Positions 1 to 8,042 are shown, numbered from the stretch's first letter. The stretch: 8,042 nt of DNA from a virus (IMGVR_UViG_2574180019_000005), one strand, 5' to 3'. Notes: generated by a model not told the origin, from the sequence alone. Translations and numbers: made by a program.

Positions 1-177
1 AGGGGAGGCTTTTGGTGTTTTTCCCTGCCGCTCATCACGTAATTGTTTCACCCATCGCGTCATTGTGGAAAGGCCGACATCCATAGCGCTGGCTGCATCT
101 GCCACGGTGTAATTCTGGTCAACGACCAGTTGAGCGGATTCGCGTTTAAACTCTGCGCTGAAATTTCTTTTTTTCAT
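1..177 (-). CDS. IS911-like OrfA (transposase N-terminal HTH protein), partial; runs off window
   Basis: Mirror copy of the right-end orfA; reverse-strand ATG at 175..177. Translation [59 protein letters not shown] matches IS911 OrfA as I recall it. Confidence 0.8.
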
Positions 178-249
178 TATGGCACCTGTGTTGTTCTGAG
201 GTGAGCATATCACCTCTGTTCAGGTGGCCAAATTCAGTAAACCACTTCA
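1..249 (-). mobile_element. IS3-family (IS911-like) insertion sequence, left-end fragment; IS body continues off the window to the left
   Basis: Bases 1..249 are the exact reverse complement of 7793..8041. The element end is TGAAGTGG (reverse strand, terminal base at 249), a TG-initiated IS3-family terminus, and it carries the start of an orfA reading frame. Confidence 0.8.
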
Positions 250-283
250 ATTCACCCCTACAGAGAGCAAAAGAGAAACGCCG

Positions 284-865
284 ATGAACAACTCATGGTG
301 GCAGGAACTAATGCATTTTTTCCTGCAAGGAATGACACTTAAACAGTTGATTCATATGCTAATCATCCTGATCATATTGATTATTGTTATGCCGGTAAGC
401 GTAAAAGAATGGATAAACCTGCATAGTCCAGAAATCCTTCCTCATTACTGGATGTATTACATCCTGTTGTTTTGCGTTAGCTATGTGCTTAACGGCGTTG
501 TTAATTCCGCTTATCACGCTGTGACTGAAAGAATTGAGGTATTCGCTGCTCAGAAGCGCAAATCTAAAGAAGAAAAATATGTGCAAGATTTGTTTGATTC
601 GTTAACTCTTGGAGAAAGAGCGTATTTGGCATTCGCTGTAGCCGCTAATAACCAGCTACAAACGGAAAAGGGCGCTCATGAATCAATTTCATTGCTCAAA
701 AAAGGACTCCTCGTTCGAAGGCCTCCTGCTGTTGGATATCCTGATACCGACCGTTTCGTTATCCCTGAAAGCTATAGACATGAGTGCTACATTAGGTTTG
801 CCGGGAAGGCAGACAGCCTTATGGATGAACTTATCGCTCAGGATAAGCATGGCAAAAACAAGTAA
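284..865 (+). CDS. sieB: Superinfection exclusion protein B-like membrane protein
   Basis: The ORF-track start at 224 lies inside the IS end; the first ATG in phage DNA is 284, giving 193 aa. Two strongly hydrophobic segments (LIHMLIILIILIIVMPV; YWMYYILLFCVSYVLNGVV). It is convergent with N, the position and size of sieB in lambda and P22. Confidence 0.6.
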   Translation: MNNSWWQELMHFFLQGMTLKQLIHMLIILIILIIVMPVSVKEWINLHSPEILPHYWMYYILLFCVSYVLNGVVNSAYHAVTERIEVFAAQKRKSKEEKYVQDLFDSLTLGERAYLAFAVAANNQLQTEKGAHESISLLKKGLLVRRPPAVGYPDTDRFVIPESYRHECYIRFAGKADSLMDELIAQDKHGKNK

Positions 866-881
866 TTAGCAAATGAATTTA

Positions 882-1154
882 TCATCTCGCCGTCAGTTGT
901 TTTGATTTCCGGTAGCCTGCCGCGTAAAGAGCTACGTTCGGAAGACAAGTTGAACCTTCATATTTTCTGGTCAACGTTGTCAGAGTTATCACTTCTGCTC
1001 TCATTGCTGGTTTGAGCTTGCATTGCAAGACCACTCGTGAAGGGGTTGGCCTGTGTAGCTTGTCGGAGCTGATCGCCTCCTGACTTTGCAGATTTGCGCG
1101 ACGAGCTCTACGGCGAGAAGCTGCGGTGCCTTTAAATTCTGTTTTTCTGGACAT
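882..1154 (-). CDS. N: N-family transcription antitermination protein (P22 gene 24-like)
   Basis: Internal ATG at 1154 with GGAGG 5 nt upstream on the reverse strand. N-terminal arginine-rich motif GTAASRRRARRA; C-terminus LPNVALYAAGYRKSKQLTAR resembles the P22 gp24 C-terminus as recalled. Lies between sieB and nutL/pL as in lambdoid phages. Confidence 0.75.
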   Translation of the reverse strand: MSRKTEFKGTAASRRRARRANLQSQEAISSDKLHRPTPSRVVLQCKLKPAMRAEVITLTTLTRKYEGSTCLPNVALYAAGYRKSKQLTAR

Positions 1155-1265
1155 GGATTCCTCCCGAATAAACTTTGGCGATGCAATCTCGAAGCTCCTC
1201 CTGAGACGGTTGCTTCGGCATTGCATCCCACAGCTTATGTGGTTGGGTGATCTGGCTTTTCAGCC

Positions 1266-1297
1266 ACGTAGTCGAGAGTCGACGTTGTTTAAAGAGC
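1266..1297 (-). promoter_or_regulatory. Candidate nutL (boxA GCTCTTTAAACAA plus boxB-like hairpin GTCGA-CTC-TCGAC)
   Basis: Reverse strand reads GCTCTTTAAACAACGTCGACTCTCGACTACGT. BoxA matches the lambdoid consensus (CGCTCTTA-like). A perfect 5-bp-stem hairpin follows. It sits about 110 nt upstream of N, downstream of the putative pL. Confidence 0.45.
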
Positions 1298-1343
1298 CTG
1301 CCAGTCTGTTCCATTTGGCTTCCAGCGTCCTGCTGACGGTTAA

Positions 1344-1386
1344 ATAGTACGATATGTACTTTACAAGATCAATACAATTTGTTGTA
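1344..1386 (-). promoter_or_regulatory. Candidate pL promoter with overlapping OL operators
   Basis: On the reverse strand: -35 TTGATC (1367..1372), 17-bp spacer, -10 TACTAT (1344..1349). Perfect palindrome AGTACGATATGTACT (1346..1360) overlaps the spacer and -10. A second palindrome TACAA-TTTG-TTGTA lies at 1373..1386. The 11-mer AAAGTACATAT (promoter-relative) is shared with the pR region. Confidence 0.4.
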
Positions 1387-1558
1387 AGTTGGCGTGGTTT
1401 TTTATAACGCTTTGTATTTAATAGTGTTGTTTTTTAGCGTGGATGTATTGCCTCGGCGATGTAAGGAGAGATCAGAATTGCGTGGTTTAGTGGGTTGCAT
1501 CTATTTATTTTTCAATAAATATAATTGGTTATGTGTTTTTAGGTGGGCGAACGTGAGG

Positions 1559-1587
1559 CAAAGAAAACCCGGCGCTGAGGCCGGGTT
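1559..1587 (-). terminator. Intrinsic terminator ending the leftward cI operon
   Basis: Directly after the stop of the 250-aa gene: 6-bp GC stem CCCGGC/GCCGGG (1568..1573 / 1580..1585) with a 6-nt loop, followed on the reverse strand by UUUUCUU (1561..1567). Confidence 0.6.
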
Positions 1588-1590
1588 GTA

Positions 1591-2343
1591 TTATGCTGCA
1601 AGTCTCTTAACCCAAGTCTCTCTTTTGGAGAATGGTAGAACTTGGCTTGATTCATGGAAGAGTAAGGAGAGTTGTTGCATTTGATCACCAATTGCTTCGC
1701 TGTCTATAACAACAAATCTGTTGTTATACTCCTCACTTGAAGCTTTAAGATCAATTAGTTTCCCAAGCAATGAGTAAGCACTATTCCAGCTTCCTCCGTG
1801 TTTCACGCTTGATGTAAAAACGTATTTAGGTATGTCGGTTTTTATTGTTACAGGGACGGTAATTTGATGTCCACTCAAGCCATATACGTTTTCACGAAGA
1901 GAAAGTGCGTCTCTAAGCTCTGTGTGATATAGATAATCAATAACCATACTTTCAAACTTTTCAGCTTGAACTGGCTGATACCAGTCTAACGACAAAGTTG
2001 ATGCGAGTATACCAGCTCTAATTATGTTCGATGTAATCGCACCGACATCCTTTTCTGTTGCCCAAGCAATGATTTCTCCTCGAGCATTGAGTTCTGCGCC
2101 TTCTTTAAGCAGTAATTGTCGTATCTCATCAAGTCGTTTTTTGGTAAGCGAGATCCCTCTTGCCTCCATATTCATTAAGGCATCGCATCTGTCACTAACT
2201 AAATACCTACCATTGACTTCACGGATAAAGGCACCGACATGCTCTCCATCATCACAGTAAGTGAATGGACTGATAATTCTCAAGGTCTTGCCTATTGGAT
2301 GGCATTCGAAACCTAGTTGTGAGATCACTGTTGAGCACATCAT
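1591..2343 (-). CDS. Hypothetical protein (250 aa), distal gene of the cassette at the rex position; candidate defence or exclusion component
   Basis: Long ORF on the same strand as cI. Its ATG (2341..2343) overlaps the stop of the upstream gene in an ATGA arrangement. Followed by a terminator. I recognise no motifs. Confidence 0.75.
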   Translation of the reverse strand: MMCSTVISQLGFECHPIGKTLRIISPFTYCDDGEHVGAFIREVNGRYLVSDRCDALMNMEARGISLTKKRLDEIRQLLLKEGAELNARGEIIAWATEKDVGAITSNIIRAGILASTLSLDWYQPVQAEKFESMVIDYLYHTELRDALSLRENVYGLSGHQITVPVTIKTDIPKYVFTSSVKHGGSWNSAYSLLGKLIDLKASSEEYNNRFVVIDSEAIGDQMQQLSLLFHESSQVLPFSKRETWVKRLAA

Positions 2344-2897
2344 ATTCCAAACCCCATTTGCCCCGACTCATCTTCAAGCGGTAAAGGTATTCTCCCAGAG
2401 TAAGTTATGTTCAGATGTTTACAGAAGTAATTCCAATACCCTACCAGGTCATCTGGGTTTATGTCATCTTCGATTGGAAACGCTATTCTATCACTATAGT
2501 ATCCAGCTTCTTCATAGTATACATGGTAGTGAGCACCGTAAATGATATCTTGGTACTTCGGATGATCGACCTTGTAACTATTCGTGTGTTTGTCAAAGTG
2601 ATAGGTATCTACCGCGAAAACCCTCTTGTTATGATAGAAAGCAATAATATTTATTTTAGGGTAAGAAATCGGGTCATCAGGTTCTGAATCCTGATCTGGT
2701 TTCCATTTCAGTTCAAACTTTAGCCCTTGTATAGGTATACAATCCTCATCCAAGGGGATGATATGGGCTTGTAGCCACATATCAGAGCGACTTGGTTTCT
2801 GTTTCCATTTAACGCCAGAAAAGTTAACTATTTTTTTACAATAAAGTACTTTATCAACTTCTACTTGGCTTGGCTGATAATCATCTATTTTTGCCAA
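2340..2897 (-). CDS. Hypothetical protein (185 aa), proximal gene of the cassette at the rex position; candidate defence or exclusion component
   Basis: ORF begins 40 bp downstream of the cI stop. The first in-frame start is TTG (2895..2897), just after an in-frame TAA; the next ATG is at codon 40. Protein is rich in Asp/Glu/Tyr/His (for example HFDKHTNSYKVDHPKYQDIIYGAHYHVYYEE). Very AT-rich DNA. Confidence 0.7.
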   Translation of the reverse strand: MAKIDDYQPSQVEVDKVLYCKKIVNFSGVKWKQKPSRSDMWLQAHIIPLDEDCIPIQGLKFELKWKPDQDSEPDDPISYPKINIIAFYHNKRVFAVDTYHFDKHTNSYKVDHPKYQDIIYGAHYHVYYEEAGYYSDRIAFPIEDDINPDDLVGYWNYFCKHLNITYSGRIPLPLEDESGQMGFGI

Positions 2898-2936
2898 TGT
2901 TTACCGCCCTGTAAATTGTAGATAAAAGTGGTTTCA

Positions 2937-3596
2937 TCACCCAAACGTCTCTTCAGGCCATTGGCTGGCGATAACTTTCCCCACAACGGAACAACTCTCA
3001 TTGCATGGGATCATTGGGTATTGTGGGTTTAGTGGCTGTAGAAACACCTGACCGCTATCCCTGATCAGTTTCTTGAAGGTAAATTCATCACCACCAAGTC
3101 TGGCTATGCAGAAATCGCCGGGCTCAACAGCTTGCTCAGGGTCAACCAGAATTAACATCCCGTCAGGAAAGCTGGGTTTGGAACCTGTTGGTGCGGTCAT
3201 TGAGTTACCTTCAACCTCAAGCCAGAATGCAGAGTCACTGGCTTTTTTGGTTGTGCTTACCAATCTCTCCGCATCGCCTTTGGTAAAGGTTCTGAGTTCT
3301 GGAGAGAACATCCCAGCCTGAACATGAGAAAAAACAGGGTACTCATATTGTTTTTTAACTGGGGCCGATGAGTATTCGCCAACAGGTGAAAATGTCCCGT
3401 CGTGGTTGAATGATATGTTATCAATACCAAGGTATTTAAACACCACACCAATATCACTAAGAGATGGATGACGAGATCCGCGCAACCAGTGTCCAATCCC
3501 ACCCTGCGTCATACCTAGCTCTTCGGCTAACTTCTCTTGAGTTATGCCGAGCTCTTTCATTCTGGATCTAGCCAGTTCATACCATTTCATTTTCAT
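2937..3596 (-). CDS. cI: Phage repressor cI (LexA/S24 family) with a lambda-type C-terminal domain and a non-lambda N-terminal HTH domain
   Basis: From [20 protein letters not shown] to the C-terminus QWPEETFG the protein matches lambda cI as recalled, including the Ala-Gly autocleavage site (VQAGMF) and the S24 domain. The N-terminal HTH ([23 protein letters not shown]) is different. Start is ambiguous (ATG at 3596 or 3590; the ORF track uses TTG at 3638). Confidence 0.9.
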
Positions 3597-3707
3597 GTCC
3601 TTATTATTACGCTCTGTACTGGAACCATCCATGCACAATGTGTATTTTTACTTGTATTCGCAAAGTACATATTGTATTTTTTTATTCGTGTTTACTATGG
3701 AGGGCAT
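3597..3707. promoter_or_regulatory. OR operator region with candidate pR (and divergent pRM)
   Basis: Candidate pR: -35 TTGTAT (3652..3657), 17-bp spacer, -10 TATTTT (3675..3680), GGAGG 4 nt before the cro ATG. AAAGTACATAT (3662..3672) ends 2 bp before the -10, the same spacing as in the pL candidate. TGTATT occurs three times (3641, 3653, 3673). Confidence 0.45.
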
Positions 3708-3923
3708 ATGAGCAACCTACGAAAATATCGAGAGTCACTGAATATCTCTCAAACAACACTTGCTAAGGCAGTTGGATGCACACAGGGAGCTATCGGACAT
3801 TGGGAATCTGGTCGTCGCTTCCCAGACCTTAAAACATGCCGTGCTCTTGTTGCGTGCCTAAACAAGTTAGGCGCAAAAGTCAGTCTTGATGACGTGTTCC
3901 CGCCGGAACACAAAGCCGCTTAA
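3708..3923 (+). CDS. cro: Cro-like HTH (XRE-family) repressor
   Basis: 71 aa, HTH TQTTLAKAVGCTQGAIGHWESG. Divergent from cI across the operator region with a GGAGG ribosome-binding site. The ORF-track start at 3537 would overlap cI and OR, so I take ATG 3708. Confidence 0.8.
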   Translation: MSNLRKYRESLNISQTTLAKAVGCTQGAIGHWESGRRFPDLKTCRALVACLNKLGAKVSLDDVFPPEHKAA

Positions 3924-3933
3924 TAAGCGGATC

Positions 3934-3966
3934 CGCTCTTTGTAACAACGGACATTCGTCCTACGT
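3934..3966 (+). promoter_or_regulatory. Candidate nutR (boxA CGCTCTTTGTAACAA plus boxB-like hairpin GGAC-ATTC-GTCC)
   Basis: Located just after the cro stop. BoxA and the flanks ACAACG ... CTACGT match the nutL candidate, while the hairpin stem sequence differs. Confidence 0.5.
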
Positions 3967-4064
3967 CGCTGAAAAGCGAGTTCCAAGATATCTGACCAAC
4001 TAAGGCCATATGCGTTTCCACGCATACCTTTCAACTAACTATTCACTATTGGAAATCTTAAGAA

Positions 4065-4361
4065 ATGGAAAGAACAAGTTACAGCAAACTATCACAGCGT
4101 GACGTTGATCGCGCAGAAACAGATTTACTTATCAATCTGTCAGCTATTACCCAGCGCGGTCTGGCAAAGATGATTGGCTGTCATGAATCGAAGATAAGCA
4201 GAACGGACTGGAGATTTATTGCTTCGGTCTTGTGTGCTTTCGGAATGGCATCAGACATCAGTCCGATTAGCAGGGCTTTTAAGTATGCGCTTGATGGACT
4301 CACCAATAAAAAACGCCCGGCGGCAACCGAGCGTTCTGAACAAATCCAGATGGAATTCTGA
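4065..4361 (+). CDS. cII: Transcriptional activator cII (hybrid: lambda-type C-terminus, divergent N-terminal and DNA-binding part)
   Basis: C-terminal LTNKKRPAATERSEQIQMEF matches lambda cII as recalled; the N-terminal two-thirds differ. Position between cro/nutR and O. Confidence 0.85.
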   Translation: MERTSYSKLSQRDVDRAETDLLINLSAITQRGLAKMIGCHESKISRTDWRFIASVLCAFGMASDISPISRAFKYALDGLTNKKRPAATERSEQIQMEF

Positions 4362-4382
4362 GGTCATTACTGGATCAATCCA
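4305..4382 (-). ncRNA. oop: OOP antisense RNA (with terminator to), overlapping the cII 3' end
   Basis: Plus-strand sequence AATAAAAAACGCCCGGCGGCAACCGAGCGTTCTGAACAAATCCAGATGGAATTCTGAGGTCATTACTGGATC is the reverse complement of lambda oop RNA as I recall it, with a few substitutions. The GC hairpin plus U-tract lies at the 3' end (about 4305..4330). Confidence 0.7.
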
Positions 4383-4393
4383 CAGGAGTCATT

Positions 4394-5293
4394 ATGACAA
4401 ATACAGCAAAAATACTCAACTTCTGCAGAGGTAACTTTGCCAAACAGGAGCGTAATGTGGCAGATCTCGATGATGGTTACGCCAGACTATCAAATATGCT
4501 GCTTGAGGCTTATTCAGGCGCAGATCTGACCAAGCGACAGTTTAAAGTGCTGCTTGCCATTCTGCGTAAAACCTATGGATGGAATAAACCAATGGACAGA
4601 ATCACCGATTCTCAACTTAGCGAGATTACAAAGTTACCCGTCAAACGGTGCAATGAAGCCAAGTTAGAACTCGTCAGAATGAATATTATCAAGCAGCAAG
4701 GCGGCATGTTTGGACCAAATAAAAACATCTCAGAATGGTGTATCCCTCAAAACGAGGGAAAATCCCCTAAAACGAGGGATAAAACATCCCTCAAATTGGG
4801 GGATTGCTATCCCTCAAAACAGGGGGACACAAAAGACACTATTACAAAAGAAAAAAGAAAAGATTATTCGTCAGAGAATTCTGGCGAATCCTCTGACCAG
4901 CCAGAAAACGACCTTTCTGTGGTGAAACCGGATGCTGCAATTCAGAGCGGCAGCAAGTGGGGGACAGCAGAAGACCTGACCGCCGCAGAATGGATGTTTG
5001 ACATGGTGAAGACCATCGCGCCATCAGCCAGAAAACCGAATTTTGCAGGGTGGGCTAACGATATCCGCCTGATGCGTGAACGTGACGGACGTAACCATCG
5101 CGACATGTGTGTACTGTTCCGCTGGGCATGCCAGGACAACTTCTGGTCCGGTAACGTGCTGAGCCCGGCCAAACTCCGCGACAAGTGGACCCAGCTCGAA
5201 ATCAACCGTAACAAGCAACAGGCAGGTGTGACAGCCTGCAAACCAAAACTCGACCTGACAAACACTGACTGGATTTACGGGGTGGATTTATGA
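4394..5293 (+). CDS. O: Replication initiation protein O (lambda type)
   Basis: 299 aa, MTNTAKILNF...DWIYGVDL, essentially lambda O as recalled. Contains the ori iterons. Stop overlaps the P start (ATGA). Confidence 0.95.
   Translation: MTNTAKILNFCRGNFAKQERNVADLDDGYARLSNMLLEAYSGADLTKRQFKVLLAILRKTYGWNKPMDRITDSQLSEITKLPVKRCNEAKLELVRMNIIKQQGGMFGPNKNISEWCIPQNEGKSPKTRDKTSLKLGDCYPSKQGDTKDTITKEKRKDYSSENSGESSDQPENDLSVVKPDAAIQSGSKWGTAEDLTAAEWMFDMVKTIAPSARKPNFAGWANDIRLMRERDGRNHRDMCVLFRWACQDNFWSGNVLSPAKLRDKWTQLEINRNKQQAGVTACKPKLDLTNTDWIYGVDL
4742..4870. repeat. ori-lambda: four O-binding iterons followed by an AT-rich unwinding region
   Basis: Iterons ATCCCTCAAAACGAGGGAA (4742), AATCCCCTAAAACGAGGGAT (4761), ATCCCTCAAATTGGGGGAT (4786), ATCCCTCAAAACAGGGGGA (4809), then the A-rich stretch AAAAGACACTATTACAAAAGAAAAAAGAAAAGATTATT. 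Confidence 0.9.
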
Positions 5294-5991
5294 AAAACAT
5301 CGCCGCACAGATGGTTAATTTTGACCGTGAGCAGATGCGTCGGATCGCCAACAACATGCCGGAACAGTACGACGAAAAGCCGCAGGTACAGCAGGTAGCG
5401 CAGATCATCAACGGTGTGTTCAGCCAGTTACTGGCAACTTTCCCGGCGAGTCTGGCTAACCGTGACCAGAACGAACTGAACGAAATCCGCCGCCAGTGGG
5501 TTCTGGCTTTCCGGGAAAACGGGATCACCACAATGGAACAGGTTAACGCAGGAATGCGCGTAGCCCGTCGGCAGAATCGACCATTTCTGCCATCACCCGG
5601 GCAGTTTGTTGCATGGTGCCGGGAAGAAGCATCCGTTATCGCCGGACTGCCAAACGTCAGCGAGCTGGTTGATATGGTTTACGAGTATTGCCGGAAGCGA
5701 GGCCTGTATCCGGATGCAGAGTCTTATCCGTGGAAATCGAACGCGCACTACTGGCTGGTTACCAACCTGTACCAGAACATGCGGGCCAATGCGCTGACTG
5801 ACGCGGAATTACGACGCAAGGCTGCCGATGAACTGACCTGTATGACAGCGCGAATTAACCGTGGTGAGACGATACCTGAACCAGTAAAACAACTTCCTGT
5901 CATGGGCGGCAGACCTCTAAATCGTGTTCAGGCGCTGGCGAAGATCGCAGAAATTAAAGCTAAGTTAGGACTGAAAGGAGCAAGTGTATGA
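5290..5991 (+). CDS. P: Replication protein P (DnaB helicase loader, lambda type)
   Basis: 233 aa, MKNIAAQMVNFDREQMRRIANNMPEQYDEKPQ..., matches lambda P as recalled. Translationally coupled to O and ren. Confidence 0.95.
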   Translation: MKNIAAQMVNFDREQMRRIANNMPEQYDEKPQVQQVAQIINGVFSQLLATFPASLANRDQNELNEIRRQWVLAFRENGITTMEQVNAGMRVARRQNRPFLPSPGQFVAWCREEASVIAGLPNVSELVDMVYEYCRKRGLYPDAESYPWKSNAHYWLVTNLYQNMRANALTDAELRRKAADELTCMTARINRGETIPEPVKQLPVMGGRPLNRVQALAKIAEIKAKLGLKGASV

Positions 5992-6278
5992 CGGGCAAAG
6001 AGGCAATTATTCATTACCTGGGGACGCATAATAGCTTCTGTGCGCCGGACGTTGCCGCGCTAACAGGCGCAACAGTAACCAGCATAAATCAGGCCGCGGC
6101 TAAAATGGCACGGGCAGGTCTTCTGGTTATCGAAGGTAAGGTCTGGCGAACGGTGTATTACCGGTTTGCTACCAAGGAAGAACGGGAAGGAAAGATGAGC
6201 ACGAACCTGATTTTTAAGGAGTGTCGCCAGAGTGCCACGATGAAACGGATATTGGCGGTATATGGAGTTAAAAGATGA
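5988..6278 (+). CDS. ren: Ren protein (lambda type)
   Basis: 96 aa, MTGKEAIIHYLGTHNSFCAPDVAALTGATVTSINQAAAKMARAG..., matches lambda Ren as recalled. Start overlaps the P stop. Confidence 0.85.
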   Translation: MTGKEAIIHYLGTHNSFCAPDVAALTGATVTSINQAAAKMARAGLLVIEGKVWRTVYYRFATKEEREGKMSTNLIFKECRQSATMKRILAVYGVKR

Positions 6279-6303
6279 CCATCTACATCACTGAGCTAAT
6301 AAC

Positions 6304-6335
6304 AGGCCTGCAGGTAATCGCAGGCCTTTTTATTT
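6304..6335 (+). terminator. Intrinsic terminator between ren and ninB (tR2-like)
   Basis: 8-bp stem AGGCCTGC/GCAGGCCT (6304..6311 / 6320..6327), 8-nt loop, followed by TTTTTATTT. Confidence 0.7.
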
Positions 6336-6351
6336 GGGGGAGAGGGAAGTC

Positions 6352-6792
6352 ATGAAAAAACTAACCTTTGAAATTCGATCTCCGGCACATCAGCAAAACG
6401 CTATTCACGCAGTACAGCAAATCCTTCCAGACCCAACCAAACCAATCGTAGTAACCATTCAGGAACGCAACCGCAGCTTAGACCAAAACAGGAAGCTATG
6501 GGCCTGCTTAGGTGACGTCTCTCGTCAGGTTGAATGGCATGGTCGCTGGCTGGATGCAGAAAGCTGGAAGTGTGTGTTTACCGCAGCATTAAAGCAGCAG
6601 GATGTTGTTCCTAACCTTGCCGGGAATGGCTTTGTGGTAATAGGCCAGTCAACCAGCAGGATGCGTGTAAGCGAATTTGCGGAGCTATTAGAGCTTATAC
6701 AGGCATTCGGTACAGAGCGTGGCGTTAAGTGGTCAGACGAAGCGCGACTGGCTCTCGAATGGAAAGCGCGATGGGGAGATCGGGCTGCATGA
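6352..6792 (+). CDS. ninB: NinB (Orf) recombination mediator protein
   Basis: 146 aa, MKKLTFEIRSPAHQQNAIHAVQQILPDPTKPIVVTIQERNRSLDQNRKLWACLGD..., matches lambda NinB as recalled. Ribosome-binding site GAGGGAAG upstream of ATG 6352. Confidence 0.9.
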   Translation: MKKLTFEIRSPAHQQNAIHAVQQILPDPTKPIVVTIQERNRSLDQNRKLWACLGDVSRQVEWHGRWLDAESWKCVFTAALKQQDVVPNLAGNGFVVIGQSTSRMRVSEFAELLELIQAFGTERGVKWSDEARLALEWKARWGDRAA

Positions 6793-7316
6793 CTATCAAA
6801 TCAAATACGCCAGCACACGACAAGGACTGCTGGCAAACGCCGCTTTGGCTTTTTGATGCACTGGATATTGAGTTTGGATTCTGGCTGGATTCGGCAGCGA
6901 GCGACAAAAATGCTCTGTGCGCTCACTGGCTAACTGAGGACGACGACGCGCTCAATTCTGAGTGGGTAAGCCACGGTGCAATCTGGAATAACCCACCGTA
7001 CAGCAATATCAGGCCGTGGGTGGAAAAAGCCGCTGAGCAGTGTATACAACAGCGACAGACGGTAGTGATGCTTGTGCCAGAGGATATGTCTGTCGGATGG
7101 TTCAGCAAGGCTCTGGAGAGTGTTGACGAAGTTCGTATTATCACTGATGGACGGATTAATTTTATCGAACCATCGACAGGGCTGGAGAAGAAGGGAAACA
7201 GCAAAGGCTCCATGCTGCTGATTTGGCGACCGTTCATCAGTCCTCGACGGATGTTTACTACCGTATCCAAAGCGGCATTGATGGCGATCGGGCAGGGCGT
7301 CAGGAGGGCTGCATGA
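6789..7316 (+). CDS. Phage-type DNA N6-adenine methyltransferase
   Basis: 175 aa. Catalytic motif IV NPPY (WNNPPYSN), typical of amino-methyltransferases. ATG overlaps the ninB stop and the stop overlaps the ninE start. Sits where lambdoid prophages carry the small phage Dam-type methylase. Confidence 0.8.
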
Positions 7317-7489
7317 GACGACAGCGACGAAGCATCACCGACATAATCTGCGAAAACTGCAAATACCTTCCAACGAAACGCTCCAGAAATAAACGCAAGC
7401 TAATCCCAAAAGAATCTGACGTAAAAACCTTCAATTACACAGCCCACCTGTGGGATATCCGGTGGCTAAGATATCGTGCGAGGAAATGA
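7313..7489 (+). CDS. ninE: NinE protein
   Basis: 58 aa, [58 protein letters not shown], near-identical to lambda NinE as recalled. Confidence 0.85.
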
Positions 7490-7491
7490 CA

Positions 7492-7896
7492 ATGGATTAT
7501 TCACAGTTAAGTGATTTTGAAATTAACAGAATGGTAGGAGACATAATTTTTAAAGGCCTTTGGGCAAGTAAACCGGAAACATCAGGGAATAACACCAACA
7601 AATGGTATTACGGAAATGCTGATACAACTTTTGAGCCATTAAATCATTTGCCTGACTACTGCAATGATCCGAGCGCTTCATGGCCGATTATTGAGAAATA
7701 CAGGATTTCTATCTTAGACCAGTTAACTGAATGGTGTGTGGATGCAAAAGGCGTAAGCCCAATATTTGATACCAGACCTCTCCGCGCCGCCATGAAGTGG
7801 TTTACTGAATTTGGCCACCTGAACAGAGGTGATATGCTCACCTCAGAACAACACAGGTGCCATAATGAAAAAAAGAAATTTCAGCGCAGAGTTTAA
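7492..7896 (+). pseudogene. nin-region ORF of unknown function, interrupted by IS insertion at 7792/7793 (native part 7492..7792, tail read from IS DNA)
   Basis: ATG 7492 with GAGGA 7 nt upstream. The reading frame continues across the IS terminus TGAAGTGG at 7793, so the last 34 codons are IS-derived. Confidence 0.5.
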
Positions 7897-8042
7897 ACGC
7901 GAATCCGCTCAACTGGTCGTTGACCAGAATTACACCGTGGCAGATGCAGCCAGCGCTATGGATGTCGGCCTTTCCACAATGACGCGATGGGTGAAACAAT
8001 TACGTGATGAGCGGCAGGGAAAAACACCAAAAGCCTCCCCTA
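7793..8042 (+). mobile_element. IS3-family (IS911-like) insertion sequence, left-end fragment; IS body continues off the window to the right
   Basis: Terminus TGAAGTGGTTTACTGAATTTGGCCACC... followed by the orfA start. 7793..8041 is the exact inverted copy of 1..249. Confidence 0.8.
7865..8042 (+). CDS. IS911-like OrfA (transposase N-terminal HTH protein), partial; runs off window
   Basis: ATG 7865. [59 protein letters not shown]. Confidence 0.8.

Follow-up and report, generated by a model that had tools for sequence, protein, structure and literature searches.

A short reading frame lies between ninB and ninE in a viral DNA segment of 8,042 nucleotides (IMGVR_UViG_2574180019_000005; the window below is this whole stretch), and the question it raises is whether it encodes a true adenine DNA methyltransferase and, if so, which site the enzyme modifies and how the phage might benefit. 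The segment itself is a lambdoid immunity–replication–nin region of phage or prophage origin, and most of the larger ORFs in it belong to the standard lambdoid set (sieB, cI, cro, cII, O, P, ren, ninB, ninE and ninX). A sequence-only reading of this DNA had described a 175-aa protein with an NPPY motif at 6789–7316, and both the frame and the motif were found as described; the core of that reading, an orphan adenine methyltransferase coupled between ninB and ninE, held on each point that was tested. The gene, which we refer to as dam (6789..7316, + strand), is an intact ORF of 528 nt with 175 codons and a TGA stop; it encodes a phage N-6-adenine DNA methyltransferase (WP_000153286.1) and is an allele of M.EcoVT2Dam. 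Our account as a whole, to which we would give a probability of about 90%, is that dam specifies a stand-alone GATC N6-adenine methyltransferase that would be made in lytic growth and raise the methylation of phage DNA.

Family and fold of the enzyme

The ATG at 6789 was preferred as the start codon because it is the start used in RefSeq and is shared by 39 homologues, and because the PF05869 and TIGR01712 models begin at residues 4 and 2, respectively, of the resulting protein; the longest extension of the frame, from a GTG at 6729 (195 aa), was dropped in its favour. An antisense ORF at 6923–7270 (115 aa) was also set aside as a mechanical ORF within a strongly supported gene.

The product had been called an adenine methyltransferase from the sequence-only reading, which left open that a database search might reveal some other kind of protein. 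The searches returned the methyltransferase family with scores far above the curated cut-offs, both for PF05869, ‘DNA N-6-adenine-methyltransferase (Dam)’ (219.1 bits against a cut-off of 28.1, E = 3.7e-65, covering model positions 1–167 of 169), and for the NCBIfam equivalog TIGR01712, ‘phage N-6-adenine-methyltransferase’ (265.6 bits against 97.05, E = 1.2e-79, positions 1–165 of 165). The protein also matched PHROG 111, ‘DNA methyltransferase’ (E = 8e-88), and its top matches in PADLOC were the ‘orphan methyltransferase’ (oMTase) models. By these family matches the dam product is classed as a real adenine DNA methyltransferase of the PF05869/TIGR01712 family, that is, of the T1–HP1–VT2 Dam type. 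It should be noted that PF02086 (MethyltransfD12), the canonical family of EcoDam, T4Dam and DpnM, gave no match, and that PF05869 was the sole Pfam match at E <= 0.01, so the protein, which is expected to act in the way of the host Dam, falls outside the canonical Dam family. The host E. coli Dam and T4 Dam (PF02086, alpha-class) catalyse the same reaction at the same reported target, G6mATC, and are orphans as well, whereas the enzyme described here is smaller by about 100 residues and lacks a separate domain for DNA recognition.

Every residue that is invariant in the family is kept in this full-length protein. The NPPY tetrapeptide (residues 68–71, codons at 6990..7001, + strand), which is the catalytic motif IV of amino-methyltransferases, is unchanged across 40 homologues and in the Dam proteins of HP1 and T1, and L33 and D34 are likewise invariant in the 40-homologue alignment and in the HP1/T1 comparison. 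The latter pair falls within FWLDSAAS (residues 31–38, codons at 6879..6902, + strand), a motif-I-like strand that is the probable SAM-binding site. The HP1 Dam of the Haemophilus phage (orf13, 35–38% identical to our protein) and the T1 Dam of the coliphage (ST20, 32% identical) belong to the same family and are of similarly small size, and they share with it the set of motifs DxWxTP, LD, NPPYS, D-S-WF and an R-F hairpin; residue by residue, the three have in common D13, W15, T17, P18, L33, D34, W59, W66, N68 to S72, D99, S101, W104, F105, E114, R122, F125, I126, N137 and K139. T1 Dam differs in being extended by 45 residues at the N-terminus and in having an insert of 14 residues, and unlike the gene in the window, the HP1 and T1 genes lie outside a nin operon and are not beside ninB.

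An AlphaFold2 model of the product of 6789–7313, built from the 40-sequence alignment, was of high confidence (mean pLDDT 90.5, pTM 0.88) and consists of alternating strands and helices. In this model the N-terminal segment bears DxWQTP (the family pattern being DxWxTP), and the strand formed by residues 31–36 (FWLDSA, with the invariant D34) is the first strand of a Rossmann-like sheet, which suggests that this strand and D34 are the equivalent of motif I and would bind SAM. A short strand at 46–48 is followed by acidic residues, and a strand at 64–68 leads into NPPY, which we propose to be the catalytic loop in which the flipped adenine would be held. Beyond it come a helix (75–88), a strand (92–97), a helix (103–109) and a strand (114–119), then a hairpin or loop at 120–140 which is modelled with lower confidence and carries the invariant residues G121, R122, F125, K139 and G140, and finally two strands (141–146 and 155–160) and a C-terminal helix. 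The motifs thus run in the order X, I, II and IV to VIII, a target-recognition domain is neither inserted nor appended, and from the model the 120–140 hairpin is the likely DNA-reading element.

When the model was compared with the PDB using Foldseek, the nearest structures were the methyltransferase domains of PCIF1/CAPAM, the cap-specific adenosine N6-methyltransferase (E 5e-5 to 5e-4, TMq 0.54–0.59), with CamA, EcoDam, HsdM of EcoR124I, METTL4 and others among the further matches at E of about 0.01 or weaker; PCIF1/CAPAM is closer than EcoDam, for which the fold match was weak (E 0.027, TMq 0.34). Together with L33 and D34, the model and these matches identify a class I (Rossmann-like) SAM-methyltransferase fold that has the motif-I acidic residue. 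As the fold neighbours are almost all N6-adenine methyltransferases they confirm the class of the enzyme, although none is a close experimental structure, and a sequence search of the PDB with the dam protein gave only chance-level matches (SdiA, E 0.31; a DHH protein, E 0.69). We note that the PF05869 family is without a solved structure, the nearest solved fold being that of the eukaryotic mRNA cap m6Am writer PCIF1/CAPAM, and that the literature on this family also covers oomycete 6mA methyltransferases and fungal DIRS retrotransposons.

The target site

The product of orf32 of VT2-Sakai, an Stx2 phage (AP000363; BAA84315.1), is identical to our protein at 174 of 175 residues, and the sole difference (D51 in the window, A51 in VT2) lies at a position where the homologues vary freely. 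In a six-frame survey of the 60,942 bp of VT2-Sakai, covering ORFs of at least 80 aa, orf32 was the only one with a (D/N/S)PP(Y/F/W/H) motif and is therefore M.EcoVT2Dam; a second VT2-Sakai methyltransferase as the real bearer of that name was ruled out in the same survey, as there is no other motif-bearing ORF. Besides their equal length, the VT2-Sakai gene (copies of which occur in 933W-type and other Stx phages) and the gene in the window share the ninB–dam–ninE position and the coupling of the genes through ATGA overlaps.

In a passage of PMC6602927 that cites Radlinska & Bujnicki 2001, GATC is given as the known target of the M.EcoVT2Dam enzyme from prophage VT2-Sa. Given the near-identity of the two proteins and the specificity reported in that passage, the enzyme encoded in the window is expected to methylate GATC at its adenine, which is also the site used by the host Dam, an unrelated enzyme. 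Phages that carry Dam-like genes include HP1 and VT-2 (PMC7556043). The window contains 28 GATC sites where 31–37 would be expected, with no sign of selection for or against the site. As for the more distant relatives, HP1 Dam has reportedly been described as a GATC methylase, by Piekarowicz and Bujnicki in 1999, and T1 Dam is said to have been described as one by Schneider-Scherzer et al. in 1990; if these descriptions hold, GATC specificity extends across the family at about 35% identity.

It had been suggested from the sequence-only reading that methylation-sensitive sequencing of a strain expressing the gene could define the target motif, and that finding no new methylated motif would count against a methyltransferase. 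We consider that the motif is predictable as GATC and that the motif-defining experiment has in effect already been done. Since the host Dam already methylates GATC, no new motif is expected on expression in a dam+ host, where such a test would wrongly reject the gene, and a dam- host is required instead.

Two other views of the substrate can be weighed against this evidence. An active adenine methyltransferase with a new, relaxed or non-specific motif would add a new pattern of methylation on expression, and this might be entertained for an enzyme that lacks a separate target-recognition domain, particularly as promiscuous prophage adenine methyltransferases do exist (M.EcoGI and M.EcoGII, and a Serratia prophage enzyme). 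M.EcoGI and M.EcoGII are likewise prophage-borne orphan m6A methyltransferases, and are silent in lysogens, but unlike the dam product they are non-specific beta-class enzymes of 349 aa with a target-recognition domain and belong to a different family, and on these grounds we rejected a non-specific methylase of their type, an idea that came from an ST131 methylome paper. With a single residue in 175 separating our protein from M.EcoVT2Dam, for which GATC is reported in the passage referred to above, and that residue in a variable column, a specificity other than GATC is very improbable. The true substrate could instead be RNA, single-stranded DNA or recombination-intermediate DNA, on which the enzyme would act with NinB rather than as a general methylase of duplex GATC. 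This is a thought prompted by the best PDB fold match being an RNA cap-adenosine methyltransferase (PCIF1/CAPAM, E 5e-5, TMq 0.57–0.59) and by the position of dam next to ninB in E. coli prophages, among the matches listed. Here DNA methylation at GATC is reported for an enzyme that is 99% identical, other fold matches are DNA methyltransferases, ninB is not found beside the homologues of HP1 and T1, and the ninB allele beside dam differs between the window and VT2-Sakai, so that the two genes have been exchanged independently; we regard such a substrate as extremely improbable.

The duplex GATC methylase that we prefer could still hold some surprise, either in recognising GATC in a way unlike that of any solved Dam, or in a functional link with NinB, of which its constant placement directly after ninB in E. 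coli prophages might be a sign and in which, for example, recombination or replication intermediates would be methylated and so escape cutting by MutH, though we think this improbable and neither feature would be specific to this window. No published functional link between NinB and Dam was found in the Orf-family (NinB/Orf) and RAGNYA papers.

The dam cassette in the nin operon

The 5' neighbour of dam is ninB (orf; 6352..6792, + strand), a recombination mediator identified by PF05772 (184 bits), PHROG 72 and RefSeq, and the 3' neighbour is ninE (7313..7489, + strand; PF05322, 140 bits, and RefSeq), after which comes ninX (PF10765). The three genes are tightly packed: the dam ATG (6789–6791) overlaps the ninB stop TGA (6790–6792), and the dam stop TGA (7314–7316) overlaps the ninE ATG (7313–7315), so that both junctions read ATGA, in keeping with the translational coupling between ninB and ninE that had been claimed for the gene. 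GGAG lies at 6775–6778, 10 nt 5' of the dam ATG, and AGGAGG at 7302–7307, 5 nt 5' of the ninE ATG. Overlaps of this kind are typical of all lambdoid nin regions (PMC8022706).

The two junctions also carry the same 11-mer, GGGCTGCATGA, which occurs exactly twice in the window (copy 1 at 6782..6792, + strand, in the ninB stop/dam start overlap; copy 2 at 7306..7316, + strand, in the dam stop/ninE start overlap) as a direct repeat bracketing dam, where only about 0.15 copies would be expected even with one mismatch allowed. It is because of this repeat that NinB and Dam both end in RAA. Homology with lambda runs through P, ren and ninB, ends at 6792 and resumes at 7320 in ninE, and homology with VT2-Sakai starts at 6782 and continues through dam and ninE; the 11-mer is found at the ninB/ninC junction of lambda and at the ninB/dam junction of VT2 as well. 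With lambda homology ending and VT2-Sakai homology beginning at GGGCTGCATGA, the sequence can be read as marking the mosaic crossover point of the dam cassette, copy 1 being its left junction. In the lambda nin region (ninB–ninC–ninD–ninE) there is the same tight ATGA packing, and ren, the terminator, ninB and ninE are 94–96% identical to those in the window, where dam sits between the two gene junctions exactly in the place that lambda gives to ninC and ninD. VT2-Sakai has a ninB allele unrelated at the DNA level to that of the window, and its 11-mer at the dam–ninE junction differs by one base. The dam gene is thus a self-contained cassette and an example of textbook lambdoid module exchange at gene boundaries.

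No cognate restriction endonuclease had been visible from the sequence-only reading and we came to the same view, as the immediate neighbours are NinB and NinE, no nuclease family was found among the window ORFs, and there was no restriction endonuclease among the window ORFs examined or in the 20-kb locus of E. coli ATCC 25922, in which the same arrangement of genes is seen for 6 kb on each side of dam. The enzyme is an orphan (solitary) methyltransferase, and assignment as the methyltransferase of a type II restriction-modification system was rejected as there is no paired endonuclease in either the window or the 20-kb ATCC 25922 locus.

The clustering of several host–phage conflict functions in this short segment, to which the sequence-only reading drew attention, is the normal lambdoid immunity and nin layout and is not peculiar to this segment. 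The exception to the standard lambdoid genes is a two-gene cassette at the rex position, encoding a DUF1828 protein of 250 aa (1591–2343, - strand) and a protein of 185 aa whose match to DUF6978 is below threshold (2340–2897, - strand), which lies between the putative N ORF, with the pL-side region, and cI, 4 kb from dam and on the opposite strand. Both of its products give weak matches to PDC-M24, a candidate defence system in PADLOC (E 5e-10 for B and E 5e-4 for A), and the cassette contains no nuclease or restriction-modification signature. Scanning the window against Rfam yielded no matches.

At the ends of the window there is a perfect 249-nt inverted repeat (1–249 and 7793–8041), which represents two ISEc52-like copies of the IS3 family in opposite orientation flanking the 7.5-kb segment from sieB to ninX. 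The right copy interrupts ninX after 7792, while in ATCC 25922 ninX is intact and the left copy alone is present, and the ninX::IS junction was absent from all 5,426 complete E. coli genomes.

Expression, role and distribution

A strong motif for a tR2-like intrinsic terminator (6304..6337, + strand), made up of an 8-pair stem with 6 G-C pairs followed by TTTTATTT, lies in the gap between the ren stop at 6278 and the ninB start at 6352. Its position matches that of the ren–ninB gap in lambda, which we take to hold tR2. Upstream, between cro and cII, is a hairpin CGCTGAAAAGCG (3961..3983, + strand) that is a putative nutR boxB by virtue of its position and form, and its partner on the leftward transcript is the putative nutL boxB hairpin GGCTGAAAAGCC (1249–1271, - strand); the two form a 23-nt inverted pair which is 87% complementary and differs by a compensatory change in the stem. 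The ORF that we read as N (882–1154, - strand) is annotated only as hypothetical in RefSeq. The whole pR–cro–cII–O–P–ren–ninB–dam unit, cI, the putative N and nutL/nutR are intact in the window, and by analogy with lambda dam is most likely a delayed-early lytic gene in the N-dependent part of the pR operon, as would follow from its place downstream of the tR2-like terminator, and is expected to be off in a repressed prophage. Within the O gene of this operon there are four tandem 20-nt repeats (ATCCCTCAAAACGAGGGAAA-like; 4742–4828, + strand), which are the expected ori iterons.

In the mechanism we propose, inactivation of cI would allow dam to be co-transcribed with ninB and ninE from pR, with N letting RNA polymerase pass tR1 and tR2 and so reach dam, which would then be translated by coupling at the ATGA overlaps along the packed nin genes. 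Dam would appear in lytic growth or on induction, and would most probably top up GATC methylation on fast-replicating phage DNA that the host Dam leaves under-methylated. Progeny DNA might thereby be shielded from cutting or nicking at unmethylated or hemimethylated GATC (by MboI/DpnII-type restriction or by MutH), and the phage would be freed from dependence on the level of host Dam. The virion DNA of lambda and P22 is under-methylated by the host Dam, possibly as a result of replication outrunning methylation (PMC8022706), and the purpose that Dam enzymes serve in phages is still poorly understood (PMC7556043). We infer the timing of expression and the biological role, as we do the residues that would contact SAM and DNA.

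The sequence-only reading had put forward two roles, protection of phage DNA from host restriction and alteration of host gene expression in lysogens, and the second is the less likely in view of the terminator and the position of dam in the operon; in lysogens, prophage methyltransferases belonging to other families were found to be transcriptionally silent. One observation does not fit a strictly lytic role, as a homologue from Phi24B came out of a screen of lysogen cultures. The authors of that work speculated on a role in lysogeny and pointed out that stable 933W lysogeny needs the host Dam. Bearing on this detection is that lysogen cultures contain spontaneously induced cells.

A different concern is that dam might be a silent passenger, intact but functionally irrelevant and with no current role in this strain, carried by a decaying, IS-ridden prophage. 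This copy of the prophage, with IS insertions nearby, may perhaps never be productively induced: the inverted ISEc52-like copies bracket the segment and interrupt ninX, two genes downstream of dam, more IS copies, along with truncated genes, occur in the ATCC 25922 relative, and the silence of the other-family methyltransferases in lysogens would be in line with such a fate. Set against this are the full-length ORF with all of its family-invariant residues and the undamaged regulatory unit from pR to dam described above, including cI, the putative N and nutL/nutR, and we consider a silent passenger here unlikely, if less so than either of the other substrates considered earlier; it would in any case concern this copy only and not the identity of the gene.

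The dam gene is far from confined to the window. Positions 1–7795 match, at 100% identity, a lambdoid prophage carried by E. coli ATCC 25922 and by related strains, and the ATCC 25922 copy of the gene is already annotated in RefSeq as ‘phage N-6-adenine-methyltransferase’ under the accession given above. Using thresholds of at least 95% nucleotide identity and at least 80% of the gene covered, dam was identified in 1,540 of 5,426 complete E. coli genomes (about 28%), and the ninB–dam–ninE order was almost always present among the ten genome matches listed. Amongst phages, a homologue occurs in 1,906 records, and 244 records encode a protein that is at least 95% identical, a set in which Stx1 and Stx2 converting phages and lambda-like isolates are numerous; the ninB–dam–ninE order recurs in many Stx and lambda-like phages. 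The gene is therefore already known and ordinary, being annotated in RefSeq, carried by over a quarter of the complete E. coli genomes and represented by a near-identical allele reported to be GATC-specific. It has little discovery value, and the enzyme is to be listed neither among sources of novel epigenetic motifs nor as one half of a restriction-modification system.

We also note that some entries in four of the protein clusters (P0002, P0005, P0011 and P0016) fuse the Dam domain to NinE, CII, a RusA-like protein or NinB, and these probably reflect frameshifts or errors in gene calling where the ATGA junctions lie, not real fusions.
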